From positions 1 through 64,000 of the IMG/VR virus record IMGVR_UViG_3300047160_006886: a stretch of DNA of 64,000 bases, one strand, 5' to 3'. Below are positions 13,327-27,534 of this stretch, in pieces. The notes beneath the pieces are model-generated. The model worked only from the letters and a program-made list of their open reading frames with translations, did no database searches and was not told the origin of the DNA. The stretch is from a virus. Within the stretch, counting starts at the first letter, position 1. Every line of letters begins with the position of its first letter. The translations under genes and the position numbers were made by a program.

Positions 13327-14073
13327 CTAGTCACGCCGTTGCTGAGCGGCCGCCTTCTCGTGGACGTTGACGCCACCGAAGTCCCTGACCCAGTCAACCT
13401 CCTGCGGAGCCATCGACTGGTCCTTCCGCTCGTTCTCGGTCAGCCGCTGTCCGCCGCCGGAGTAGGAGAAGTTGGCAACGCCACCGCCGGCCGCACCGAG
13501 GTAGTTGGTGCCCATATACTTTGAGTACTCATCCTCTTCCTCATCGCCGCCGAGGCCGCTCCCTCGATTGACCAGCACCGGTCGCTGTACCAGCGATAGC
13601 ATCTCACGAAGTTCCTCACGGGACTTCTTCATGTACTTGTTGAAGAGGATCTTCTGCTGCTTGGGATCGGCGATATTTGAAACGATCTCCCGGACCATCG
13701 CAGCCCGCTCGTGTTTGTCGATAGCCATCGCATTGACGACTGCCGAGCGAACCTCTTCCGGAGCGTTCGTCTTCTGGAGCCAGTCAAGAGTGCGGCGGTT
13801 GCCGGAGAGTTCATACTCCTCCTTGACGCCCTTGCCGCCGGCCTGAGTCGGCCCGGAGTCGGCCCGCTGCTCACCCGGCTTCATGTCAAAGGAGTGGGTA
13901 GCTTCGCCCTTGTTCTTGCCGACGGTCCTGTCGCCCTCGTCGTTCTCGACATCGTCGTCATCGTCGTCGTCATCGTCATCGTCATCCTTGGCGTTGGCCA
14001 GGAGGGCTTGCCGGGTCCGCTCGCAGGAGCAGTTCTCGGCCAGCTCTCGAATTTGTCGCCGGGTCAATGGCAT
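13327..14073 (-). CDS. Nested in-frame scaffold protein (internal start)
   Basis: AAAGGAGA-ATCAGAC-ATG at 14073 (MPLTRRQIRELAEN...); analogous to lambda Nu3 nested in gene C. Confidence 0.6.
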   Translation of the reverse strand: MPLTRRQIRELAENCSCERTRQALLANAKDDDDDDDDDDDDVENDEGDRTVGKNKGEATHSFDMKPGEQRADSGPTQAGGKGVKEEYELSGNRRTLDWLQKTNAPEEVRSAVVNAMAIDKHERAAMVREIVSNIADPKQQKILFNKYMKKSREELREMLSLVQRPVLVNRGSGLGGDEEEDEYSKYMGTNYLGAAGGGVANFSYSGGGQRLTENERKDQSMAPQEVDWVRDFGGVNVHEKAAAQQRRD

Positions 14074-17000
14074 GTCTGATTCTCCTTTGCGAGAATGGGA
14101 CCCTGGTTTATAGGACATCTTCCACGCGGAAGGTCCAGTGAGTCGGAATTGTTGCTTATTGGTCTCGGCGTTGACGGTCACCTCGACCAGGTCTTCGCCA
14201 GTGATGTCCTTCGGCATCTCATCAAGGACGAGCTGTGCCGAGTTCATGGTCGCCTTGTGCATCGAGGCGGCCTTGCGATGGAGAGCGGCGGCATTATCGT
14301 GCTCGGTCGCTCCGTCGGCATTGCCGCTCTTCCGCTCCTTGGTCGCCGCCGTCTCGTGCATCGAAGCGGCCTTGAGATGAGCCGCGGCCGCCCCGGCACA
14401 GTCGTCAGCCGAAGAACACTCCAGAGCGTTCTTGGCATGGCCGAAGGCCCTGTTGTGTTCGGTGAGCAGCGAGGCACCGGCTGCCTGCTTGGTCGCTGCA
14501 TGTGCATCGTCTGGTCCGCCCATAGTACCTCCTGGAGCCATCTCGGCTAGTGTCTGATAGGTTGAATTACGACTTGGATTGAGAGTCGCTGAAGTTGAGT
14601 TCTTGGCATCGTCCTCTTCGTCTTCTTCCCAGTCCTTGTATTCAGGCAATGATCCCTTGTTGTCGAAGCCATGCTCCTTGACCCAATCGTGCCCGAACGC
14701 ATAATTGAGATACTTCCGCTGGGCCTCGGAGACTGCTGGGTTGATGACGAAGCCGGTCGAGCCATCAGCGTTGGTCACGGGCAGGAGTATCTGATCCTCG
14801 GGGACTCCCTTGGCAAGGGAAGCTGAGTTATGTGTCTCAGATTTAAGCCGAGCTGCTCCGGTATGTTGCCGTTGAGCATACCTATGATCTGCCTCAGCTG
14901 TCCTGTGTGCTTGACGAACTGCTTCACTGCTCGATTCCCTGCCAGCCTGTTCATGAGCAACCGCCGCTTGTCCGTGTGCTTCTGCCACGTCTTTGTGTCC
15001 TTTTGTGGTAAGGTCACTGCCGGCACGAGCATGACTTGCAGCCACGTTGGAAAACTCTTTGCCTTTTCCTCCCGCGTAAGTGGATGATTTGTGGGCTTTT
15101 GCTGAAGCTGCTCTAGCTTCCTTTGCCGCTTCTCTTGCCTCTTCGGACCAAGCATTCTCAGTCAGTTCGTTGTGCACCAATGCACGGTGAGCCATCGCCG
15201 CGCCCGAATGGGCGGCAGCTGCCTCCTGGTGGGCCTTCATCCCCTCGCCGCCCCGCATGGCAGCTGAGTTGTGCATTCTCGCTGCGTTGTCGTGGGCCTC
15301 GGCCGCACCGGCGTGGTCGCCGCTCTCAGCCAGGGACATCGCCCGGCCGGAGTGGGGATTCTGACTGCCAGCCGCTCCGGTCGCAGCGTGAGCCTGTTTG
15401 GACTCTTCTGCGGCCTGACGGGCTTCCTCAGTCCACACGTTACTGATTCGCTCACTCCGCCCAAGGGGACCCCCACCAACCCCGCCATACTCTGCATCCA
15501 TAGCCCTCTTCTGGTTCGTCTGCACGGCAGCGACCGAGTAGCCCGTCTTGATCGAGGACTTGGTCTCCGGGATGGACTTGGTGCCGGAATAGGTACCGCG
15601 GAAATATTGTTCCGGAGCGTGGCTGTCCTCGTCGCCAGCTCCGGCCAGTCCCTCCTGACCAACTCTCTGCACGGTCTCGATGATGCGGCCGTCGGGGGTC
15701 ATCTGCCTGCCGACCAGCTCGGCTGCGGCGTCGTTCTCGTCCAGCTCCTCGGACGGGGGCTCGAAGGCGGGGTGAGGACCGGAGCCTCGCTCCTTGCCAG
15801 GCCAGAGACCCGGAGTGATCACATTGCTCGTTGGAGCCTTCAGTCCAGCGGCCCTCATGTGAGACTTGGCGGCATCCAAGTGAGCCGAAAAGGCGTCGCC
15901 ATGAGCACCGCGCACATAACTCTCCATTCTTGGATGTTGTCCAGCTTCCATGTGAGCATTAGCGGCGTCTAAGTGCGCGCCAGCAGCTTTCTTGTGATCC
16001 TCAGCGGATTCCGCGTTCCGGCTCAATCTCGCTGCGTCGTCAGAATGGTCCGTGAACGATCTCCCCGCCCTACTTCCCTTCACAGAATCCGTATGTCCCT
16101 TGGCCTTGACGCTGGCCGCTCTCGCCGCCTGTGCTGCTTGTCTCGCTTCATCGGTCCACACGTTCTCGGTAACGTTCACGTCAGCCACGTCTCTGCCGGG
16201 CCAGAGTCCGGCGGTGACCTTGTTGGCGGCGAGGGAGAGGAGGTCGACGGTCTTCTCAAAGAGACTGGTCTGCTGGTTGTGCGTTCCTCCACCACTCAAG
16301 AGATCATAATGAGCTGCGGCCATCGTCTTGGCTTCAGCCGGCGAGCGAGCCGTTCCCAGATGGTGCCAGAGACCACCTCCGACTTTGCTTTGTGTGTTGG
16401 CGAAATGGACCAAGTATCCCGCATGCCGGCCACTCGAAGTCGTGGTCGGTGAAACGTGATACTCGCCGTGCTCTGTCCTAGTTGTGTAACCATACTTGCC
16501 TTCAGCGGCTCCGGTTCCACCCGCATGAGTTGACCACTCAAGCTTGCTCTTACCAGTTCTAGCACTTTTACGTGCCTCGATGGCTGCTTGTCGAGCCTCT
16601 TCCGTCCAAGTGTTCCCCGTCAGCTGCTCTGCTCCCCTCAGATCCTTGACCGGAGCCGCCGGCGTCTTCCTCGGCACGTCGTAGGTGCCCGGATCGGTCT
16701 CGCTGCCCATGTTGGTGTCTCCTCCCTTCTCGTAAGGTTCTCGCTTGGTGCCACTCCACGACTTCCGCAGGATGTCGGCGGCAGCCCGCTCCCGCATCAT
16801 CGAGTTCTCATGGCTGCGGGCGATGTGCTCCTGGCCGACCTCATTGTAAGCCTTGGCGGCGTCTTCGTGCATCTTGGCAGCTCCGAGATGGGCCTTGATG
16901 GCGTCGCCGAAATCGCTCTTGCCCTTGGCGGTCTCGCTCTGCCGTCCTGCTGCTTCGTGCAGGTCGCGGGCCTTGGCTCGTACTCGCTGATCCTTGGTCG

Positions 17001-18765
17001 CGTAGGTCTCGGCGGGAGCGGGAGTCACGTTGGCAGTCAACTTCTTGTATCTCGTTCCTGGGAACGATCCTGAAGGCTCGCCTCCCGTCATCCCGTTCTC
17101 CCAGACAAGATGATGGTGCCCTCCGGGTTGTTCCGTCGCCATCACATCTTTGCCAGTAACGCTGTCGTGATGCGTCGGCTTGAAGTCCACCTCGGTCGTT
17201 TCGACATGTGGATCGGCGTGGGACGAGTCCCAATGCTGGTAGAACTCCTTGGCATCAATGCTCGGCTTCAGGCCACGTTCTTTGACGTACTGCCCATAAC
17301 CAGCCTGCCGATCTCGCGTGTAGCTCTTGACTCTTTGTACCAGCTCACGGTCTGACAGCTCATTCGACGGGATCGGTCTCTTCACCGTGACGGTTTTGCC
17401 GGCCCCGCCAGTAGAAGCGAAACGGCCTCGTTCATCTCGTTCCTGTTCGGCGTTCTTCGCATACGAATGCTTCTCGAAGTCCGTGTGGATCTCGCCATGA
17501 CCCCTGACCGCCGCGTTGTGGGGCTTGCCCTGCCAGGAGCCATCATGATGCCGGGGCTGAGGCGGAGCAGCGGTGAAGGGCCGGCCCGAGAAGAGGGTCG
17601 AAGGATGGTGCTCTTCCTCGTCATCAGGGTTGACCACCAGATCGGTGTCGCCGGGAGACGTGCCCGAGAGGATCGCCGAGTCGGCCTTGTGACCGGCTCC
17701 CTTCTTGACCTGGATGCGGAGGGATTGATCGTCATCGCCACTGCCTTCGTTCTTTGTCATCTTGCTCCCCTCCTTTGAATGCTCGGAATAAGCTCGATTT
17801 GCTAGATCAATGGCATCGCGGAGGTCACCACCAGCATGCTCTTCCATCGCGTTGAAGAGGAGGGCCTGATACCAGTCCTCATAGTCGTGAGCACTTAAGG
17901 CGTCGTCGAGCAGCTTGGCTCGGTCAATGGCGTTCGTGGCGAACCGAAAGCCAGTTGCCGACTCTCGCAGTTTGTGAAGACCCTCTTTAACTCCGGCGGC
18001 CGACGAGAGACCTTTGGCTGCTTCTTTCGACCGAGAGATGCTCTCCTTAATGGCGTCCTTGGCGGCTCGATAGGTCTTGATTGGATTACGGGCAGCGGAG
18101 TAGAGGATGTAGGATGATGAGGCGGCCGGAGCCAGGCTGGCCAGGGTGCCGGCCGGACCCGCTCCGTGGCCGGCGATGGCGACGGGCTTGGCCAGCATGG
18201 TATCCCAGGTCGCCAGCGTGTTCTTTAGAGCCTTCGCCTCCTCCGGAGTCCGACCGCGAGCGACGGCCACCTTCTCAGCCAGGTTCTGCCCTGCGTGATA
18301 GGTCGAGAAGAGAGTGTCTTTGACAACTCTGCCGGCGAAGAAGGAGGCACGAACCGGACCCTGCATCGGCTTGGGCAACTTCGAGACCGCGGCCTCCAGC
18401 TTATCCTTGACCCAGGTCGAGGCCGCGTGCTCCATCGCCTGAGCATACTCTCGCGGCTTGCCGCCGACCAGCTTCGCCGCAGCCAGGGCCGAGCCGACCG
18501 ATGACAGGGGAGAGCCGAACGCTTCCATCCCATGAGGCAGGGTGTGGAATCCTTCGAGATGTTCCAGGCCGTGACCGGCGATCTCGCCGACCGTCTCGAC
18601 CGAGTGACCGAGGTGTCCGACCTCCGCTCCGACCGGGTGAGAAGAGTGTTCAGCCCCATGACCAGCCGCGACGTGGACCGGACTTGCCCCACCTCCCCCT
18701 TCGGATGAGAACCGCCCTGCCTCATCTCGCGGATGGTCTTCTTCCTCCCACTCAGCATTGACCAC
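13327..18765 (-). CDS. Giant scaffold/cargo polyprotein (1812 aa), in frame with the upstream protease across one UGA
   Basis: The C-terminal ~250 aa are scaffold-like (acidic tract, helical). The rest contains repeated N-xWT(E/D)EARQAA, RDExGRF and His/Ala-rich helical modules. No SD upstream of GTG 18765. Confidence 0.8.
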   Translation of the reverse strand: MVNAEWEEEDHPRDEAGRFSSEGGGGASPVHVAAGHGAEHSSHPVGAEVGHLGHSVETVGEIAGHGLEHLEGFHTLPHGMEAFGSPLSSVGSALAAAKLVGGKPREYAQAMEHAASTWVKDKLEAAVSKLPKPMQGPVRASFFAGRVVKDTLFSTYHAGQNLAEKVAVARGRTPEEAKALKNTLATWDTMLAKPVAIAGHGAGPAGTLASLAPAASSSYILYSAARNPIKTYRAAKDAIKESISRSKEAAKGLSSAAGVKEGLHKLRESATGFRFATNAIDRAKLLDDALSAHDYEDWYQALLFNAMEEHAGGDLRDAIDLANRAYSEHSKEGSKMTKNEGSGDDDQSLRIQVKKGAGHKADSAILSGTSPGDTDLVVNPDDEEEHHPSTLFSGRPFTAAPPQPRHHDGSWQGKPHNAAVRGHGEIHTDFEKHSYAKNAEQERDERGRFASTGGAGKTVTVKRPIPSNELSDRELVQRVKSYTRDRQAGYGQYVKERGLKPSIDAKEFYQHWDSSHADPHVETTEVDFKPTHHDSVTGKDVMATEQPGGHHHLVWENGMTGGEPSGSFPGTRYKKLTANVTPAPAETYATKDQRVRAKARDLHEAAGRQSETAKGKSDFGDAIKAHLGAAKMHEDAAKAYNEVGQEHIARSHENSMMRERAAADILRKSWSGTKREPYEKGGDTNMGSETDPGTYDVPRKTPAAPVKDLRGAEQLTGNTWTEEARQAAIEARKSARTGKSKLEWSTHAGGTGAAEGKYGYTTRTEHGEYHVSPTTTSSGRHAGYLVHFANTQSKVGGGLWHHLGTARSPAEAKTMAAAHYDLLSGGGTHNQQTSLFEKTVDLLSLAANKVTAGLWPGRDVADVNVTENVWTDEARQAAQAARAASVKAKGHTDSVKGSRAGRSFTDHSDDAARLSRNAESAEDHKKAAGAHLDAANAHMEAGQHPRMESYVRGAHGDAFSAHLDAAKSHMRAAGLKAPTSNVITPGLWPGKERGSGPHPAFEPPSEELDENDAAAELVGRQMTPDGRIIETVQRVGQEGLAGAGDEDSHAPEQYFRGTYSGTKSIPETKSSIKTGYSVAAVQTNQKRAMDAEYGGVGGGPLGRSERISNVWTEEARQAAEESKQAHAATGAAGSQNPHSGRAMSLAESGDHAGAAEAHDNAARMHNSAAMRGGEGMKAHQEAAAAHSGAAMAHRALVHNELTENAWSEEAREAAKEARAASAKAHKSSTYAGGKGKEFSNVAASHARAGSDLTTKGHKDVAEAHGQAAVAHEQAGRESSSEAVRQAHRTAEADHRYAQRQHTGAARLKSETHNSASLAKGVPEDQILLPVTNADGSTGFVINPAVSEAQRKYLNYAFGHDWVKEHGFDNKGSLPEYKDWEEDEEDDAKNSTSATLNPSRNSTYQTLAEMAPGGTMGGPDDAHAATKQAAGASLLTEHNRAFGHAKNALECSSADDCAGAAAAHLKAASMHETAATKERKSGNADGATEHDNAAALHRKAASMHKATMNSAQLVLDEMPKDITGEDLVEVTVNAETNKQQFRLTGPSAWKMSYKPGSHSRKGESDMPLTRRQIRELAENCSCERTRQALLANAKDDDDDDDDDDDDVENDEGDRTVGKNKGEATHSFDMKPGEQRADSGPTQAGGKGVKEEYELSGNRRTLDWLQKTNAPEEVRSAVVNAMAIDKHERAAMVREIVSNIADPKQQKILFNKYMKKSREELREMLSLVQRPVLVNRGSGLGGDEEEDEYSKYMGTNYLGAAGGGVANFSYSGGGQRLTENERKDQSMAPQEVDWVRDFGGVNVHEKAAAQQRRD

Positions 18766-18801
18766 TGCAGCGGCAACTGCCGCCCGGCCGTCCTTCGGTC
18801 A
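18759..18801 (-). promoter_or_regulatory. In-frame UGA with SECIS-like recoding hairpin (candidate)
   Basis: UGA at 18799-18801, then GCGGCA-GU-UGCCGC with the apical GU 22-23 nt downstream; lower UGACC/GGUCA pairing; codon context C-P-T-UGA. Confidence 0.5.
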
Positions 18802-19491
18802 GGTCGGACACTTGGGCTTCTTGCCGTTGCAAGTACAACCATTACTCCCGACCTTTCGATTCGCTACGACGCCGATTCCACAACCATCATTCACCGAGCA
18901 GGCCCCGATCTGACCGATGAGGACAGCCAGATGGTCGGGTCGATAGTTGCGAGCGATGTAGTCGAACGCCTGCCCCTTGTAATTCGCTCCCGGCAGGGCT
19001 CGTTCGTTATCCGTGTAGAGGCCGGTTGACAGCTCGGTCGGGATGCCGTTGGTCAGGTTGTGGTAGATCTGCTCCCGCTCTTCTCGATAAGGACGGAGGG
19101 GGTCCCGGAGCAGGGCGAGGTCAAACCAGGCGTTCGCTCCGAGCTTGCCGTTCATCGAGGACTCGGCGATGAAGCCTAGACCTTGGTTATTCCAGACATT
19201 CGGATCGAGAGAACCGTCGGATTTGTGAGCCGAGACGTTGGAACCGTCGCCGGCGAGGGGGTGGAAGAGGACCAGGGGCATCCCGTTCCAGTCCGGAGTC
19301 GAGTTGCGACACTCTTCTGCCGGGTAGAACAGCTTGCCCTTGGAGCCTTCAAGGACTTGAGGGACGATGATGGTGGCGGGAGCAACCAGGTACTCACGGC
19401 CATTGCGGATGGCCCGGCGAGCCTTGGTGACTTTGACGCCGAAGTTCAGGACGAGGATCTGACGGCGGTCGAAGATCTCGGCAGCATCCAT
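18799..19491 (-). CDS. Prohead maturation protease, DUF2213-like
   Basis: EYLVAP..II..QVL...LFYP.EE...WNG.PLV..HP, ELSTG and PDHLAVL...GACS motifs; upstream of scaffold and MCP. Confidence 0.85.
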   Translation of the reverse strand: MDAAEIFDRRQILVLNFGVKVTKARRAIRNGREYLVAPATIIVPQVLEGSKGKLFYPAEECRNSTPDWNGMPLVLFHPLAGDGSNVSAHKSDGSLDPNVWNNQGLGFIAESSMNGKLGANAWFDLALLRDPLRPYREEREQIYHNLTNGIPTELSTGLYTDNERALPGANYKGQAFDYIARNYRPDHLAVLIGQIGACSVNDGCGIGVVANRKVGSNGCTCNGKKPKCPT

Positions 19492-20099: not shown

Positions 20100-22307
20100 T
20101 CACGACTCCTCCAGATCCACAAAAAGCCGCACCTTCCCCTGATTGTGAATGTTGGCGTTCTTGTGAATACCTTTGACTATGTAAACCGTTCCGTGCCTAC
20201 CGATCAGCTCCTTCTCAGACTTGAACCCATCAGACGAAATGATGGGATGAACTCCCTTGGTCTTGATCCGTAGCAGTAGTTTACCATAAGAAAATCCATA
20301 GCTCGTCGACGGTGACAGACTCGTCCCATGTGGGGCAGTATCCACATATGTCCCGCCGACGCCCTGATCCTCAAGCTTCTTGATCAATTCGTCCGAGTAC
20401 GCTCCGTGGATGCCTCGATATACAGTTCCTGCATACGGAGGAGACTTATATACCGCACTAAGAAAGTTCTTCGTCGACTCGCTCTGCGTGCCCGTGGTGA
20501 CCTGATTTCGCATCGAACTCTGACTGCCGCCTTTCCAATGGGCAATGGCAGATCTTTCGGATGAACTGAGACTTGCTGCCCATTTCTCGTGCTGCTTCTC
20601 TTGTTCGGCCGTCATGCTCGACGATGTCAAATGGTGAGTTGCGCCGTCGGTAGTACCGGCGGCGATCTCTGCCTGTGTCATCGGTTTGACTGTCGCCGAT
20701 GGCTTACCGACCTCAACTCCAGCGGCACCGAAGTCCAGCTCCGATTCGTGATGGACCTTCGAGTACTTCGGAACTGAGATGCCCTTGGCGGCGAGCTTCC
20801 CAGGGGTGATCGAACTCTTCTTGATCACCGTTCCGGCCGGCAGAACCTTCCCGAGGTCCTCTATCTTCTTGGCATTGGCTCCCTTATCACCGGAGAACAT
20901 CGGCACCTTGATCACGCCGTTCTTGATCCCTTGTGGATTCAAAGCGCTAATCTTTGCCAGCTGCATGTGCGTGAATTGGACCGTTCCCTTGTTCTGAAAC
21001 AGATGCTTGACCAATCCGTTGGCAGAATGGAGTTGATGCTCTGTCGACGCCTGCGGATACGTCTGCGACTGTGTCGGAGTGTACGTCGGAGCCGGAGCCG
21101 GCTTGGGAATACCTGTTCCTTCTTTCTCCTTCAACCAGTTCTGCAAGCTATCAAACCGCTTGTCGACGATGGCACGCGTCTCCGGGTTCTTGATCGCTTT
21201 CAGCACGTCCATTTTCTTCGGCAGGATCTCCTTGATCTGTTCTTTGATCTCTTTATCCCCGATATGCCCGAACACACTCGCAGCACTCGGATTCAGACTC
21301 GAATTGCGAAGTGTACTTAGTTCGCCAACTTCAGACCCAAACTTGTGCCCCTTCGCCGCCCCTTGCGCCCTGTACAGCAACGCTCCTCCATTGTCGGCCC
21401 GCAAGGCAGTTCCGTCTTTGGTGATGAGAATGTTGTCCTTCGTCAGCCCTGCCACATCCCAATTAGCAAGTAGAGAATCAGCTACAAAGTGCTTGCCGAT
21501 CTGCTCATGCATCTTGGCAATGTCGGCGGGACTATGAGAGCTCTCGTATTCTGCGAGAGTTTGAACTCCCTCATGGTATTCGCTGACCTTGGCGATTCCC
21601 GTCGTTCCAGCAGCGGGAGCAATGCCGGACTTCGGGACTTTGACTCCAAGAGCGCGGTAAGCGTTGTCAGCATCCACCTCGTTGGCCAGTTGTAATTGCT
21701 TGGCTGGACTGCTCTTCACGACCCAGCGATTACCAGCCTCGTCTTCCATCAACTTCGGGCCAGTAGTTCCAGGCAGATCCTTGATGTATTTCATACCCTC
21801 CACTGGCGGCACATAGTCCGGTGGGAAATAAACAGGATGAGGCGTGCTCAGAGGAGCGACAGGCAGAGCGGGAGGAGCGACAGGCGTTGTCAATATCGTG
21901 CCTGGTTTCGATACTCCAAAGAATGCCCAGCCATTGACAGCGGTATCCGATCCCTTCACCGCCTTGGCTGCGGATGTCAGGCTGCCATATGTCTTATCAC
22001 CGATCTTGAAGCCACCGTGTACCACCTCTACCTTGAATGTCTGTCCTTTGTAGACCTTCTCGAACGATCCACCCACAGGAGGCAGAACCTGACCAGAAAC
22101 AGCTGCAGCACCGACGCCGCCAGGAGAGCAGCTTGGATCGACGCCCCCGCCGGGGCCGGTTGGACAGAACGCATTTATCACCGGGTCGTCCTGCTGATCC
22201 TCCCACTCCATCCAGAAGAGAGGATCGCTCTCATCAAGGTCAAACTCCTGCTCCGAGATGACTGGCCCGGATACGTGTCCGCGAAGAGCTGCTAATGTCT
22301 CACCCAC
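20100..22307 (-). CDS. Multidomain effector: tag + DUF2924 + HipA/PI3-4-kinase-like + ADP-ribosyltransferase
   Basis: NAFCPTGPGGGVDPSC tag; SLTSAAKAVKG...NGWAFFG; kinase VVK...NEV...NWD...DNIL...DNGG; ART YRG...GTS...EKE (R-S-E class). Confidence 0.8.
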   Translation of the reverse strand: MGETLAALRGHVSGPVISEQEFDLDESDPLFWMEWEDQQDDPVINAFCPTGPGGGVDPSCSPGGVGAAAVSGQVLPPVGGSFEKVYKGQTFKVEVVHGGFKIGDKTYGSLTSAAKAVKGSDTAVNGWAFFGVSKPGTILTTPVAPPALPVAPLSTPHPVYFPPDYVPPVEGMKYIKDLPGTTGPKLMEDEAGNRWVVKSSPAKQLQLANEVDADNAYRALGVKVPKSGIAPAAGTTGIAKVSEYHEGVQTLAEYESSHSPADIAKMHEQIGKHFVADSLLANWDVAGLTKDNILITKDGTALRADNGGALLYRAQGAAKGHKFGSEVGELSTLRNSSLNPSAASVFGHIGDKEIKEQIKEILPKKMDVLKAIKNPETRAIVDKRFDSLQNWLKEKEGTGIPKPAPAPTYTPTQSQTYPQASTEHQLHSANGLVKHLFQNKGTVQFTHMQLAKISALNPQGIKNGVIKVPMFSGDKGANAKKIEDLGKVLPAGTVIKKSSITPGKLAAKGISVPKYSKVHHESELDFGAAGVEVGKPSATVKPMTQAEIAAGTTDGATHHLTSSSMTAEQEKQHEKWAASLSSSERSAIAHWKGGSQSSMRNQVTTGTQSESTKNFLSAVYKSPPYAGTVYRGIHGAYSDELIKKLEDQGVGGTYVDTAPHGTSLSPSTSYGFSYGKLLLRIKTKGVHPIISSDGFKSEKELIGRHGTVYIVKGIHKNANIHNQGKVRLFVDLEES

Positions 22308-25300
22308 CGAGGTGCTCCTTCAGCAGTGCAGTCGTGTAATGAGCATCGAAGATCTTCGCCATCCCTGGATGTCGCTTGCGATAGCCCTCAAGGAACTTTC
22401 CGTCTCCACCCTCATACTTATCTCGGTATATCTCGCGGTGGTAGAGACGATAATGCTCAGCGAAATTCTCTTCCCAGTTGTCCAGACTACGACGACCGGC
22501 CACACCGTACTTTTCCTCGTACCATTCGTGAGGCATCTTAGTCTTGAGTCCGGCCGGGTCTGCTTTTACCCGGTCCATGACTTTCTTGTACTCATCGCTG
22601 ATGGCTTCGGTCATAGTGTTTTTGTTGCTGTAAGACGAACCACCCAGAGACCCCCGGAGGACATGCCCCAGCTCGTGCCTGTAGCTTCCTGGTCTGGTCG
22701 TCGAGCCAACCTCGATCTGACGTGATCCGAGATTGGCCAGGGCTTCACCGCCGAGAGCAGTCTTATGTACTGTGATCTTCGTCAGAGCGTCCAAGTCATA
22801 CTTCGGCGTATCACTGAACTCCTTCACTGGTCCGCCCGCAAGTCCACTCGTAATCTCCACAACTCGATTCGGATTTCCTCTGACGACCTGGGTCACGGCG
22901 TTCTCGACAGCACTACCAGACTTAAAGATAGAACCGGTCACCTTTGTTCGCATTTCCATATCCGATGACAGACCAGCCTTTAACTGCTCTTTCGAGTAGC
23001 CAGTATCTTTCGCTACTGACGACAGGACCGACCCCAAGCCATGTTCGGTAGTTGGCGACGGAGTGGTTACCGCAGGAGGAAGAGGGAGGAGAGACTGGGG
23101 AGCTGCTTTCGTCAGACCGAAGAACGCCCAGCCATTTATCGGCGTGTCAGTGCCCCGGACAGCCTTCGCCGCCGCAGTGAGACTCTTGTGAACTTTGTCT
23201 CCGATCTTATAGCCATCGTGCGTGACTTCAACTTTGATCTTCTGTCCTTTGTACGTTTTCTCAAACGTGCCTCCAACCGGAGGGTGGGGCTGACCCTTTC
23301 CGGGCGAACATGAGTTATCCTGACCTCCCCCAGGTCCGGTTGGACAAAAGGCATTATACGTTAGTGGTTCCTTACCTTTTGGATTGTAGACCTGTAATGC
23401 CCAGATGAATTTATGCCCGGCCTTTCTGAATTCGTTCACTCGATGGTGTCCGTCTTCAACTGACCATTTCGAGTGTTTACTCTCCTCCATCCCCTCCGGA
23501 ACGCCCTCGGTTATGACCGGCGGATGCAATCCAGATGGATTTTTCTTGATAATACTCGCTATGTCTTTTCTTGGTGGTGAGTCACCGATAGGATTCTCAG
23601 ACCCAGCTAGAGCACGAACAGGAACAGACACCAGTTTCCATTTCAGTTCTCTGATATTGCGAACATTACCTGCTTCAGCTTCCGAAACAGCATCTTCAAC
23701 CAGCTTCTTACTGGGGGGATCGTACTTTGGCTTCTCCGAATGAGAGCACGAAGGATCAACTCCTCCACCTTTTCCAGTTGGACAGAAAGCGTTCCACGTG
23801 TACCCCGGCCACGGGCACGCCGGCCACAACCGGGCTCCATCGGTGCCGAAGTGTCGGATGTTGAGGATCGACTTAGGCCGCGATGTCGAAAGTGGGGAAC
23901 CAGTGACCGCCCCGACCACCTTCAGTATCGTGCTGATGGCCGACTTCGACCGCTTCTGACCCTTGGTATCTTCGCCGACGTTGGCCGGAATCCAAGCGCA
24001 GCGACAATTCGGGTGCTGGGGCAACATGCCGCGAGCCTCGTCGGTCGTCAGGACCACCCCGTCGAGCTGTTCACAATCGGGACAGACGTCCTCATCGTCA
24101 GCAGTCGACCACTCGACGGCAGCGCCGACCTCTTCGATGCCCAGGGCGTCGAAGCCGTCGAGCTGCCCTTCGGCGTGGGCACGGATGATCTCGGTTCTGG
24201 CGATGGTCAGGGCCCTCTCGCGGCCGACGTCGACCGCCTTGGAGAGGTCACGGCCGATGTCTCTCGGAGACTGCCCCTGGACCAGCCCGTCGAGAAGGGT
24301 CCGAGACATCCTGATCGCCATCAGCTGGGTGACTCCATCCAGCTCGGTGAAAACCCTCCCGGCCAATTGCTTGACGCGGTCGATGGAGATTGGGTTGGCG
24401 AAGGCCGAGCGGAGGAACTGGGCCTTGGTTCCTTCGAAGAAGTCCATCGGTTCACCCATCGTCTGACCGAGGGCCTTCTCGGCGGCGGTGGCATCCTCGA
24501 ATGCCCTCCCCTGGCCCTTGGCGTACCCTTGCATGATGTACTGCTGCCAGAGCTGATCCATCGTCTGGCCGCGAATCTGCGACTGGACCTGCTGCTTGAG
24601 CCACGCCTTGAACGCCTCGACCTGTTCAGAGGTGGTGTGGAACTTCCAGCGAGTGTTGTCAATCAAAGCGTTGCGAGTCTGGGCTTTCACTCGAACCTCA
24701 GATCGTTCGGCATCTCTCGCTCTCTTTTCCATCTGATCTCGCGTCAGTTCATCTCTTTTATCGGTGATATCCCTAGCATGTTGCAGTTCGTGCCGCCAAG
24801 TCCGTCCTGCTTGATCCTTCAGTTCTGGATCAGTAAAAAGTATATGAGGAAGATTTACTCTAGCTCCACCTTTGCCATCTCCGAACGCTTGTGGCAATGC
24901 GTTCTTCAAGACATGAACAGTCACTCCGTGCATAGGAACGTGGGCTTCCCCTTCCAACCATTCTAGATACCTCTTCGCTCTAGCATTCCCAGCTCTCAGT
25001 TTGCCAGAACTCCTAACTTTTGGCGAACAGCTTGGATCAACTCCTCCGCCCTCGCCGGTGGGACAGAAGGCGTTGCGAGTGAGCGTATATTCCTTCATCG
25101 CAGGAAGATCTCTGACATCAACAGAGTATCCGTAGGACTTGCCAATCTCCTTGGAGATCCTGTCGTAGAACACCACTCGACTCGGCTCGCTCTTCGCGGC
25201 AGTGAACTCCATCGACCTCGGCTGCTTGTCCTTGATGAACTGACTCAAGGATGTCTGCACTCCTCGGAGCACCTTGATCGGAGACGTGTTCGGATCGTGA

Positions 25301-27534
25301 GTCATCAGAGACGTTCCTTCCGACGACCCTCGCTTGGACTCAAGTCCGAATCCTATGTCCCAGTGCCCTCCTCCTCCATGTTCTGCGTCGAAGAAGAACT
25401 GCCTATCTCCAACTTCAAACTTGGTGGAATATCGCAGACCATCATCCTTGACAATCTCGTGCCTCGAAGAGCAGCTGTTGTCTTCACCCCCACCTTCACC
25501 AGTTGCACAGAATGCATTGAGCACTCCATCCGCTCTCTTGCACTCCTCCCACGCCCTGGCGTACAGAGTCTTCGACCCCTCCTTTATCCGCCTGACCGCC
25601 TCAGCCTCGCCGGGGGTCATCTCCTCGCGCCCCTCATGCTCCATCGCCGCCTTGATAGCCCGGACCACGTCGTAGGCGTTGTGGTCTCGCTCCCGGGCAA
25701 TCCAGATCGGCTTGAGGCAGAAGATCACCTCGACGACGAAGCCGGAGGAGAGCCGGTAGTTAACCAGCAGGTCGCGGTAGCCGTTGGCCATCGGCTCCTT
25801 GAAGCGGTCCTTAGGTAGGCGAGCGAGAGAGCCGCCGGACTCCTCGACCCAAGAGAGGAGTTGATCGGCGGCGTCCCTCAGCTCCTGCATCGAGTCGGTC
25901 AGGACCGCCGCCCTGACGACATCGAGCAGCCGCGACCAGTCGCCGTCGTAGTCGCTCTTGACCTTCTCTTCGGCTCTCTCCTCCCCCTTCTGCGGGGCCA
26001 GGACGACGAGGCCGCCGGGCTTGTCCAGCTTAACCTCCAGGTCACCAAGTTCGAGATCCTGGTAGCGTACCATCGGATAACCCAGCTTAGCGAGCAGACC
26101 TTCCAGCTCATCCTGTCCTCCCTTGGCCATGTCTTTGAGGTCGTCGTAGTTGTCAGCATCGGAGATCGGCTGCTTCGGCTCGCCATAGACTTGCTCGACG
26201 ACCTCCGGCAGCAAGTCCTCCTCCCAGTCCTTGTCGCTCGTCGCATGGATCGACTTGTCATCAACATAGGCGACCGCCTCCATCTTCTTCTTGACCCCGT
26301 CATGGTCAATGCCCCACTCTTTGAGCTTCTTCCTGACTCCCGGCGGGTCGGGATTGGCGGTGAAGATGACAACCTTGAAGCCGGCTGCTCGCAGCTTCTT
26401 CAGTCCGTCCTTCGCTCCTTCCCTCAGAGTCATCCGATTGAAGTCGTGGACGCCGGGATCATTGGTGATGGTGCCGTCGAAGTCGATGCCAACCGTCCGC
26501 TGAGCATCAGGGACGGTGTTGAGAGCCGGCATCAGCGAGATGACGGTCTTCTCCCCGTCCGGGTCCGAGAAGACGAGGTCGGTCAGCGACATCTTCATCC
26601 TGGCCACGGAGTCGTCGCCTGTGTACTTCGGTCCCAGACCGGCCTTGACGTAGGCCAAGGTGACGTGCGGCGAGTATCCGGCGTGAGTCTCGACGTGGTC
26701 CAGGCTCGCCAAGAGGCGGTTCAGCCTCTCCAGCTCCGAGCTGACGACATCGATCTTCACCACGTCGGCACCGTCGCTGCTCTCGGTGGCCGGGAAGAAC
26801 GAAGTCTTGCCTAGCTCGATCTCGACGATGCCGAAGCCCGACACCAGCCGCCGGACCTCCTCCGGGTCCTTCGTGGTCAGGCCGTAGCGGACGGTCACGT
26901 GGATCTCATCCTCTTTGCCCTTCCCGGCCAAGTCGTCGTCGGCGATCCTGTCCTGCAGGGCGAGGATCTTCGGCAATGGATCGCCGGTCAGGTCGAACTG
27001 AGTTGAGGAATACCTGTGCTCACCTCCTTCACCAGTTGCACAAAAAGCATTATCCACGAACTCTGGTGACCAATCTTTGTAGGCAAACCCATCCACATCG
27101 ACGAAGCGACATGGCCCGCCCGGATAGTCCTGCTCGAAGCGGGAGCCGTCGGGGACGCCGTCGGGCAGGGGCATGAAGACGTTGACGGCGATGCGGAGGT
27201 TGCCGTTAGCTAGAGGGAGCGGCGGAGTCGCCATCCGCTGAGACCCGGCTTCCCTGCCGCTCCCCGACCCCGAGGTGAGGTTCGCTGTCGTTGTCTCCTT
27301 CAACCCCCTCAGACCAAAGGCGTCCTCGTCGACCACCAACTTGACGATCTGACCCTTGAGCCGGTCGAACTGCCGGCGGATCTTGGCGGCAAACTGGCGG
27401 CGGAGAGCCAGCGTCCGGGACGGGTCGATCCGGGACGGACTCTTCCGCCGCCTGGCATCCGTGCCGCCATGAGGAGACTTTCGGCGATTGATCGCTGCCC
27501 GCAGCTGGAACTTGCTCGGAGTGCGGATCTTCAT
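22300..27534 (-). CDS. MuF (SPP1 gp7-like) minor head polyprotein with multiple inserted effector domains
   Basis: MuF core IARTE...EWSTADD..VCPDC...PQHPNCRC; 2H HVT...HVT; HAD DFDGT; RelA/SpoT DVVR...GYRD; HELQH; DGHHR; DUF2924; HELGH...ENFAE. Confidence 0.9.
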   Translation of the reverse strand: MKIRTPSKFQLRAAINRRKSPHGGTDARRRKSPSRIDPSRTLALRRQFAAKIRRQFDRLKGQIVKLVVDEDAFGLRGLKETTTANLTSGSGSGREAGSQRMATPPLPLANGNLRIAVNVFMPLPDGVPDGSRFEQDYPGGPCRFVDVDGFAYKDWSPEFVDNAFCATGEGGEHRYSSTQFDLTGDPLPKILALQDRIADDDLAGKGKEDEIHVTVRYGLTTKDPEEVRRLVSGFGIVEIELGKTSFFPATESSDGADVVKIDVVSSELERLNRLLASLDHVETHAGYSPHVTLAYVKAGLGPKYTGDDSVARMKMSLTDLVFSDPDGEKTVISLMPALNTVPDAQRTVGIDFDGTITNDPGVHDFNRMTLREGAKDGLKKLRAAGFKVVIFTANPDPPGVRKKLKEWGIDHDGVKKKMEAVAYVDDKSIHATSDKDWEEDLLPEVVEQVYGEPKQPISDADNYDDLKDMAKGGQDELEGLLAKLGYPMVRYQDLELGDLEVKLDKPGGLVVLAPQKGEERAEEKVKSDYDGDWSRLLDVVRAAVLTDSMQELRDAADQLLSWVEESGGSLARLPKDRFKEPMANGYRDLLVNYRLSSGFVVEVIFCLKPIWIARERDHNAYDVVRAIKAAMEHEGREEMTPGEAEAVRRIKEGSKTLYARAWEECKRADGVLNAFCATGEGGGEDNSCSSRHEIVKDDGLRYSTKFEVGDRQFFFDAEHGGGGHWDIGFGLESKRGSSEGTSLMTHDPNTSPIKVLRGVQTSLSQFIKDKQPRSMEFTAAKSEPSRVVFYDRISKEIGKSYGYSVDVRDLPAMKEYTLTRNAFCPTGEGGGVDPSCSPKVRSSGKLRAGNARAKRYLEWLEGEAHVPMHGVTVHVLKNALPQAFGDGKGGARVNLPHILFTDPELKDQAGRTWRHELQHARDITDKRDELTRDQMEKRARDAERSEVRVKAQTRNALIDNTRWKFHTTSEQVEAFKAWLKQQVQSQIRGQTMDQLWQQYIMQGYAKGQGRAFEDATAAEKALGQTMGEPMDFFEGTKAQFLRSAFANPISIDRVKQLAGRVFTELDGVTQLMAIRMSRTLLDGLVQGQSPRDIGRDLSKAVDVGRERALTIARTEIIRAHAEGQLDGFDALGIEEVGAAVEWSTADDEDVCPDCEQLDGVVLTTDEARGMLPQHPNCRCAWIPANVGEDTKGQKRSKSAISTILKVVGAVTGSPLSTSRPKSILNIRHFGTDGARLWPACPWPGYTWNAFCPTGKGGGVDPSCSHSEKPKYDPPSKKLVEDAVSEAEAGNVRNIRELKWKLVSVPVRALAGSENPIGDSPPRKDIASIIKKNPSGLHPPVITEGVPEGMEESKHSKWSVEDGHHRVNEFRKAGHKFIWALQVYNPKGKEPLTYNAFCPTGPGGGQDNSCSPGKGQPHPPVGGTFEKTYKGQKIKVEVTHDGYKIGDKVHKSLTAAAKAVRGTDTPINGWAFFGLTKAAPQSLLPLPPAVTTPSPTTEHGLGSVLSSVAKDTGYSKEQLKAGLSSDMEMRTKVTGSIFKSGSAVENAVTQVVRGNPNRVVEITSGLAGGPVKEFSDTPKYDLDALTKITVHKTALGGEALANLGSRQIEVGSTTRPGSYRHELGHVLRGSLGGSSYSNKNTMTEAISDEYKKVMDRVKADPAGLKTKMPHEWYEEKYGVAGRRSLDNWEENFAEHYRLYHREIYRDKYEGGDGKFLEGYRKRHPGMAKIFDAHYTTALLKEHLGG

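Follow-up and report, generated by a model that had tools for sequence, protein, structure and literature searches.

A conserved UGA cassette between a predicted prohead protease and a scaffold-like polyprotein of a soil phage, with a tentative case for a leaky stop

Tailed phages set the ratios of their proteins by frameshifting, as in tail chaperones and some capsid genes, and by nested starts, as in protease and scaffold genes. In lambda C/Nu3, Mu I/Z and P2 gpO, protease and scaffold share one frame, an internal start additionally yields the scaffold by itself, and the protease enters the procapsid via its fusion to the scaffold. Programmed readthrough of a stop codon is, to our knowledge, established only in RNA phages and not in tailed double-stranded DNA (dsDNA) phages. 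Here we describe a junction at which an in-frame UGA separates a predicted head-maturation protease from a long scaffold-like open reading frame (ORF) in IMG/VR record IMGVR_UViG_3300047160_006886, an uncultivated soil virus (111,990 bp, 60% G+C, estimated to be 93% complete); the stretch analyzed, which comprises the initial 64 kb of that record, is hereafter called the window. Our comparison indicates that the junction is a selected feature, a conserved "stop-in-linker" cassette found again in distant relatives. For its function we tentatively favor, at a little less than an even chance, a programmed leaky UGA at which most translation would end in a short product and a minority would go on to the full-length fusion. 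The genes surrounding the junction lie on the minus strand, and its elements, in window coordinates, are the following.

18802..19491, minus strand: predicted protease ORF of 230 amino acids (aa), ending ...GCTCNGKKPKCPT and then TGA at 18801-18799
18802..18819, minus strand: tail motif K-P-K-C-P-T at the C-terminus of the upstream product, matching the conserved end [D/K]-P-x-C-P-T
18799..18801, minus strand: in-frame UGA, next base C (UGA-C)
18766..18798, minus strand: spacer PKDGRAAVAAA, 11 in-frame codons, starting CCG AAG GA (Pro-Lys)
18769..18784, minus strand: hairpin GGCGGC-AGUU-GCCGCU, with the loop GU at +22/+23 after the UGA
18763..18765, minus strand: GTG, a possible re-initiation codon 3 nucleotides (nt) after the hairpin, and also the P3 Val of V-V-N
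18757..18765, minus strand: V-V-N, a hydrophobic-x-Asn directly ahead of the AEWEEEDHPRDEAGRF module start and a putative cleavage site of the protease
13327..18765, minus strand: scaffold/cargo-like ORF of 1812 aa, with repeated NxW(T/S)(D/E)EAR, RDExGRF and His/Ala helical modules
13390..13413, minus strand: MAPQEVDW, an LPLPTINW-type C-terminal motif near the end of the 1812-aa ORF

Reading the frame confirmed that the TGA joins the protease ORF to the 1812-aa ORF, as the initial annotation of this DNA had proposed. Past the TGA, the zero frame continues PKDGRAAVAAAVVNAEW... / PKDGRAAVAAAVVNAEWEEEDHPRDEAGRF... and is stop-free to 13327, giving 2055 codons in total that the TGA interrupts once; the 1823 codons after it are fully open, and the first start-type codon in frame is GTG 18765, 12 codons beyond the TGA. 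Since the record is a metagenome assembly and a single GGA-to-TGA change would suffice, an assembly or sequencing error, or a recent nonsense mutation in a dying gene, has to be considered. Logan contigs from two soil-metagenome runs of different studies, one of which may be the source sample of the record, span 18657-18922 (X1 record 3) and 18692-18842 (X4 record 12) with zero differences; both carry the TGA, so the assembly error at 18799 that had been allowed for is not seen. Taking this two-run identity together with the 1823 open codons and with the presence of the junction in four relatives and at least 17 protein clusters, we reject error or decay as scarcely credible.

Of the 38 long minus-strand ORFs of the phage, 26 terminate in TGA, which bears out the earlier remark that UGA is a normal stop elsewhere in this genome and shows that the code is not reassigned. 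Global reassignment of TGA (codes 4 and 25, or recoding of phage late genes) was rejected on this ground, TGA terminating most genes and occurring once in the 2055 codons. TGA-C is the stop of nine of the long ORFs, and C or A follows the TGA at 10 of the 26 ordinary stops. The 112-kb phage record holds no tRNA gene, tmRNA gene or selB, and a suppressor tRNA supplied by the phage was rejected for want of any tRNA gene. Frameshifting or hopping at ACC-UGA-CC was rejected as well, the long ORF lying in the zero frame.

The same end of the upstream product is found in other members of the family. [D/K]P.CPT is the exact end of 14 among the first 104 homologs, CPT is the C-terminus of 17 of 246 proteins (at least 17 protein clusters), and a CPT-stop ends 19 of 237 domain rows. 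Of the 17 clusters with CPT at the end, 13 have it as [D/K]P.CPT, and [D/K]-P-x-C-P-T-stop is the exact end of about 8% of homolog clusters. At the DNA level we compared five cases: the window, L299/L103 (the same phage), L083, L020 and L322. The four relatives share about 45-50% identity with the window in the protease domain, and their junctions read as follows.

L103/L299: ...DDPQCPT, TGA, PKGRPKGGRAPSMN...; 957 codons in frame
L083: ...QQDCPT, TGA, RKRPKGTRGVLN and then CGGEGG...; at least 735 codons in frame
L020: ...GDDKC, TGA, PKTKGVAVSN...; 716 codons in frame, with the end ILPLPTINW
L322: ...SKPQCPT, TGA, PKGGRKATVSGIN and then NSNPEG...; 803 codons in frame, with the end LLEAPTINW

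In the order window, L299/L103, L083, L020 and L322, the stop is TGA in 5/5 cases with C, C, A, C and C as the fourth base, and the frame is open into ORFs of 1823, 957, 735, 716 and 803 codons. Three of these cases (L083, L103/L299 and L322) were picked without any condition on the sequence beyond the stop, and the chance that all three would be in frame is 1/27. A hydrophobic-x-Asn (h-x-N) ends all five post-UGA spacers at 10-14 codons beyond the UGA; because this distance varies in whole codons, indels must have occurred, and only in multiples of three. The spacers all start [P/R]-K and are basic and stop-free in frame, being too short and divergent for a substitution test. The C-P-T codons differ synonymously between loci (TGT/TGC, CCG/CCC, ACC/ACT), which places the conservation at the protein level. 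The anatomy, its conservation and the preserved frame can thus be read directly from these loci, and the cassette would run in the order [D/K]-P-x-C-P-T, UGA plus C or A, [P/R]-K, short basic spacer, NGUN-loop hairpin, h-x-N and next module. That the same stop, Cys-Pro-Thr tail and hairpin stand in four distant relatives argues that the junction is selected; the isolated nonsense mutation that the initial annotation had considered does not agree with this recurrence of CPT-TGA, frame and GU-loop hairpin. In L299:2169 (IMGVR_UViG_3300005764_000074), the CPT-TGA lies 283 aa downstream of the protease core, amid scaffold modules; the cassette is therefore portable and need not stand at the protease/scaffold boundary.

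Further scans added few loci. In 57 relatives from a scan of species genomes there were zero CPT-stop cases, and single-protein scans of viral contigs gave no close relative of the window protein or of P0067. L299 was the sole true case among 17 matches to D-P-x-CPT-TGACC, and L322 the sole true case among 18 matches to the K-P-x version; the pattern DGCG-gap-CPT-TGAC gave chance matches only. A second class of homologs comprises eight proteins that end ...(K/E)(Q/K/E)GCGDGG-stop after linkers of 0-170 aa (P0014, P0015, P0026, P0031, P0048, P0069, P0085 and P0157). For this class, the pattern GCGDGG-TGAC had no true case among 13 matches, and a profile scan found no such locus.

The hairpin described in the initial annotation, with its GU at +22/+23 and a lower stem of UGACC and GGUCA, is present, UGACC (18801-18797) being able to pair with GGUCA (18763-18759) as an outer stem. 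Its folding energy is unremarkable, with a z of -1.2 to -1.3 against shuffles and a place at the 6th percentile of 45-nt segments of the same ORF (6th to 48th percentile of ORF segments over the energy tests as a whole); the hairpin is absent from the minimum-energy fold of an 81-nt context, and Rfam at E<=10 returned nothing relevant. A G+C-rich stem of 5-8 bp is present in each of the five loci, and its N-G-U-N loop of 4-5 nt starts 20-24 nt after the UGA, the loops being AGUU in the window, CGUGC in L299, (C)GUG(G) in L083 (in shorter-stem notation), and CGUGA in L020 and in L322. The loop GU falls at +22 in the window, +26 in L299, +23 in L083, +22 in L020 and +25 in L322 (overall GU span, +22 to +27), and the stem sequences differ among the loci. 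When in-frame positions elsewhere in these ORFs were taken as controls, 5-11% per ORF had a GU-loop hairpin in the pre-set interval. It is therefore recurrence in relatives, and not folding energy, that puts the hairpin beyond chance, and on this comparison it is best regarded as part of the cassette, with shared ancestry and post hoc choice allowed for. AAGG(G/A) stands upstream of every hairpin in the five loci; in the window this is the weak Shine-Dalgarno (SD)-like AAGGA at 18795-18791, inside the post-UGA spacer.

What the UGA divides in these loci is mostly continuous in the rest of the family. An exhaustive profile-free search gave 6185 homologs at E<=0.001; the best 150 of the 6185, which we inspected, are mostly 400-1700 aa long with the protease domain N-terminal. 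In nearly all of 160 viral and metagenome loci, 220-1100 aa follow the GACSxxDGCG motif. NxWS(D/E)EAR, QPRDxxGRF and His/Ala helical modules recur in these tails, which look like scaffold. Pfam gave nothing over cut-off for the 1812-aa ORF; most homologs carry an equivalent tail in fusion with the protease domain. Judging from these architectures, protease and scaffold are normally fused in one gene in this family. The tails end a few residues past a (D/E)(D/E)x(I/L)LPLPTINW-type motif: of 177 complete tails, 63 contain a strict LPLPTINW-type pattern within their final 40 aa, as do 18 of 456 control windows, and variants of it can be recognized by eye in most other tails. Even short family members, with ~30-110 aa after the core, finish in this motif. 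The 1812-aa ORF has MAPQEVDW and then 20 further residues, and the 230-aa product is without such a motif.

The 230-aa ORF itself matches phrog_760 (E 3.6e-16, profile positions 8-200 of 447); it has no Pfam match at E<=0.01, and homologs at 40-50% identity carry PF09979 (DUF2213). A literature search on DUF2213 and on the CPTG motif gave nothing useful. An AlphaFold model built from 26 homologs has a predicted local distance difference test score (pLDDT) of 86.5, with an ordered core of about residues 20-210 and disordered residues 1-16 and 211-230. Its best PDB match is the T4 capsid assembly protease gp21 (5jbl; probability 1.00, E 7e-4, target-normalised template modelling score 0.55), and herpesvirus proteases rank next. 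H77, S155, D186, H187 and C198 are invariant across homologs, and N211, directly after the core, is nearly so. In two relatives (L045:1167-4180 and L048:5932-8950), an intein-like insert of ~400 aa lies exactly within the invariant GACS motif, between GAC and S (GAC-ILPGQ...LLVSN-CSINDGCG), a position that fits an essential site. The fold match, the invariant residues and the intein site together support the label "protease": the ORF is a predicted head-maturation (prohead) protease with the fold of T4 gp21 and herpesvirus assemblin.

An Asn with a hydrophobic residue two or three positions earlier ends both the protease core (VAN; Asn211 at 18859-18861) and the post-UGA spacer (VVN, 18757-18759). 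The same h-x-N motif precedes module starts throughout the polyproteins of the family; fused homologs show ...VEN directly followed by AYNPNQPRDxxGQF, and similar sequences, at module starts. This fits a putative cleavage rule like the h-x-E of T4, with Asn replacing Glu.

Based on these findings, we propose how a leaky UGA could work. Most ribosomes would terminate at the UGA and release the protease domain with its Cys-Pro-Thr tail; in L299 the released product would extend beyond the protease into scaffold modules for about 280 aa. A minority would decode the weak UGA-C through a near-cognate tRNA and yield the full-length fusion, which alone would bear the LPLPTINW-type C-terminal motif. 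The downstream part may also be made alone from the GUG or AUG beside the hairpin, so that three products could arise, like those from the nested starts of lambda C/Nu3 or Mu I/Z. We favor the leaky UGA because it accounts for the frame kept despite indels, for the C or A as fourth base and for a C-terminal motif present only on the fusion. It is further supported by the fusion being the family norm with the stop at one exact place, and by the anti-SD pairing at GTG 18765, which is no better than at internal codons; with or without a separate start of the downstream part, it follows the logic of the fused relatives and of systems like lambda C/Nu3. UGA-C is said to be the weakest stop signal in E. 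coli, a finding attributed to Poole, Brown and Tate (EMBO J, 1995). That readthrough occurs, at what level and with which inserted residue, and what the hairpin contributes to it, is what we infer from this arrangement.

Several points weigh against a leaky UGA. The frame evidence consists of three unbiased cases (p about 0.04), which may share ancestry and so would not be independent draws; the domain tree is star-like, with 15 changes needed for the CPT-stop trait and only 2 forced by the starred branches, so that it does not separate a single origin from multiple origins. The conserved [P/R]-K..G after the stop could mirror a purine-rich AAGG in the RNA, and a stop yielding mostly free protease without a targeting motif looks wasteful. 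The hairpin begins 14-18 nt after the UGA, whereas known readthrough stimulators start about 8 nt after the stop. Finally, every locus has an in-frame GUG or AUG by its hairpin and L322 has a strong SD, so the downstream ORF could be a gene of its own. A small share of the probability is kept for mechanisms outside those considered here, for example regulation by a protein that binds the hairpin.

The last of these points leads to a picture of two separate, translationally coupled genes, the main alternative, which we consider quite possible without giving it the better part of our belief. The UGA would then simply terminate a free protease, whose functional C-terminus would be [D/K]P.CPT; translation of the scaffold ORF would begin, independently or by the terminating ribosomes, at the GUG or AUG beside the hairpin; and the hairpin would present or mask that start codon, or shorten the distance from AAGG(A/G) to it. 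The common frame would be a relic of gene fission through one GGA-to-TGA-type change. The in-frame GUG or AUG lies within the loop (L020 and L322), in the 3' arm (L083) or 1-3 nt past the hairpin (L299 and the window), at nt 22-37 after the UGA (8-13 codons). In L322, GGGAGGAAGG stands 5-9 nt upstream of the GUG, and its pairing of -10.3 kcal/mol beats all 30 internal start-type codons. The initial annotation had dismissed independent initiation at GTG 18765, and with a start codon in all five loci and this SD in L322 we do not uphold that dismissal. Start-plus-SD candidates in the first 40 codons of four loci also number 4 against 1.3 expected, a mild enrichment that agrees with two genes, as do the AAGG(G/A) ahead of each hairpin and the fact that the cassette is never found without its stop. 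Also on this side, some genes of the phage, the protease gene included, begin without an SD, and the GCGDGG-stop class suggests that C-terminal tails containing Cys have a function of their own.

Against two genes stands, first, the frame, which is kept in 3/3 blind-found cases despite changes in spacer length. Anti-SD pairing at GTG 18765 is -5.3 kcal/mol, at background level; in this and the other loci except L322, internal start-type codons pair at least as well, and most real starts of the phage pair more strongly. The AAGGA of the window lies 25 nt from the GTG, and no start with an SD occurs in the first 200 codons of its downstream frame. The GUG in the loop is out of frame in L083 and L299, and since the in-frame GUG also encodes the hydrophobic residue of h-x-N, its presence has a second explanation. 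Two genes would also leave unexplained the C or A as fourth base in 5/5 and the route by which a free protease lacking the C-terminal motif would get into the procapsid.

The initial annotation had raised selenocysteine (Sec) as another fate of the UGA: host SelB would bind the N-G-U-N hairpin and the UGA would be decoded as Sec, giving C-P-T-U within the full-length fusion, the yield of which would depend on selenium supply and on the host Sec machinery. UGA in 5/5 cases, a Cys three residues ahead of it in 4/5, and a GU-loop hairpin with its GU 22-27 nt after the UGA in 5/5 (versus 5-11% in the control) on differing stems all agree with this idea, and the phage hairpins would pass the loose structural criteria of searches for the bacterial Sec insertion sequence (SECIS). 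Planctomycetota genomes hold most integrated relatives, and the phage group, which is large and comes mostly from soil and sediment, is probably planctomycete-infecting. SelB scored above the curated cut-off in 109 of 151 sampled genomes of this phylum, to which the Gemmataceae bacterium G003 belongs (G003-G154), and Sec-type selD and fdhA genes are present there; SelB is, however, missing from 3 of 4 planctomycete genomes with related prophages. An in-frame TGA was seen in planctomycete selD (4 of 6 matches, 4 of 5 genomes) and in fdhA (2). The fdhA SECIS of planctomycetes, CGUCGCC-GGUCU-GGCGAUG, has its GU at +20/+21 in the geometry of E. coli fdhF, the selD elements being less clear. Where fdhA has GGUCU, the phage cassettes have AGUU or CGUGN; the GU of these loops ranges over 5 nt, from +22 to +27, and is 2-6 nt farther from the UGA than in planctomycete fdhA. 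The phage hairpin is SECIS-like and not SECIS-typical.

The protein side agrees still less with Sec. Comparison of homologs at this codon, proposed earlier as a check of TGA versus TGC/TGT, gave TGA in 5/5 and a sense codon in none; in 1.18 million residues of family ORFs there was no sense-codon version of [DKEG]P.CP[TS]-X-[PR]K, and hence no relative with Cys or any other sense codon at the position. Internal CPT among the 246 proteins is followed by Gly in 13 of 14 instances, by Arg once and by Cys never; the tags concerned are of two types, N-x-F-CPTG-x-GGG-x-D-x-x-C and KPGPCPTGG. Because no sense-codon cassette was found and because these related tags have Gly, and never Cys, after CPT, we consider Sec very unlikely; the geometry of the hairpin and the frequency of SelB in the candidate host phylum leave it a small probability. 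In addition, Cys and UGA stand at varying distances (C-UGA in L020, and yet another distance in the GCGDGG-stop class), the stop falls within a disordered linker (pLDDT <50) and not in a redox fold, Rfam has no match, the phage is without tRNA and selB, and Sec would make the in-frame starts next to the hairpins a coincidence. We know of no phage selenoprotein described so far; if Sec were true after all, the full-length fusion would be the first encoded by a phage and would tie head assembly to the selenium status of the host. The proposal that Sec insertion or readthrough sets the ratio of free protease to fusion is partly supported: the junction is recurrent and fusion is the family norm, but the Sec half lacks support.

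Neighboring head genes contain tags that resemble the Cys-Pro-Thr tail. Six copies of N-A-F-C-(P/A)-T-G-x-G-G-G-x-D-x-x-C-S, which belongs to the first of the two tag types above, stand at module boundaries at 22125-25520 (minus strand) of the window, in a 1744-aa MuF-type ORF and a 735-aa ADP-ribosyltransferase-like ORF; the N-A-F-C-(P/A)-T-G tag is widespread among relatives, with eight copies in L011. The 735-aa ORF (20100-22307, minus strand) has a weak match to the ADP-ribosyltransferase family PF03496 (E 2e-4) and to DUF2924, and the 1744-aa ORF (22300-27534, minus strand) combines Mu-F head morphogenesis, 2H phosphoesterase/Acb1-like and HAD-like stretches. From these domains, both look like cargo-carrying minor head polyproteins.

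A cassette of this kind at a module boundary of a head polyprotein would be a new use of readthrough or an unusual coupling device. It also matters for annotation, since gene callers split such polyproteins where the UGA stands and list the protease as "stand-alone".

How does the junction compare with known systems? It resembles lambda C/Nu3, Mu I/Z and P2 gpO in the frame shared by protease and scaffold, but these have no stop between the two parts, whereas here a UGA stands between them, so that the fusion would be rare and the free protease common. With bacterial SECIS elements (E. coli fdhF; planctomycete fdhA and selD) it has in common an in-frame UGA and a G+C-rich GU-loop hairpin within about 20 nt; it differs in the lack of Cys homologs, in a loop of NGUN instead of GGUC(U), in a GU that is 2-6 nt farther from the UGA and at a variable distance, and in lying in a disordered linker instead of an active site. 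Murine leukemia virus gag-pol, with its UAG and pseudoknot, likewise has a stop between structural and protease-bearing modules and a downstream RNA structure, which together set the ratio of short to long product, as we propose here; that system is eukaryotic, its pseudoknot comes 8 nt after the stop, and its order of protease and structural parts is reversed. The coat/A1 pair of Qbeta, with its leaky UGA read by tRNA-Trp, recalls our proposal in that an assembly gene ends in a weak UGA, a minority of products carries an in-frame extension, and one mRNA gives two products at a set ratio. Qbeta is an RNA phage in which the same protein is extended by 196 aa, whereas here, in a tailed dsDNA phage, the readthrough that we propose would lead from a protease into an 1812-aa scaffold, and the phage cassette has, unlike A1, a conserved peptide tail before the stop and a conserved hairpin after it.

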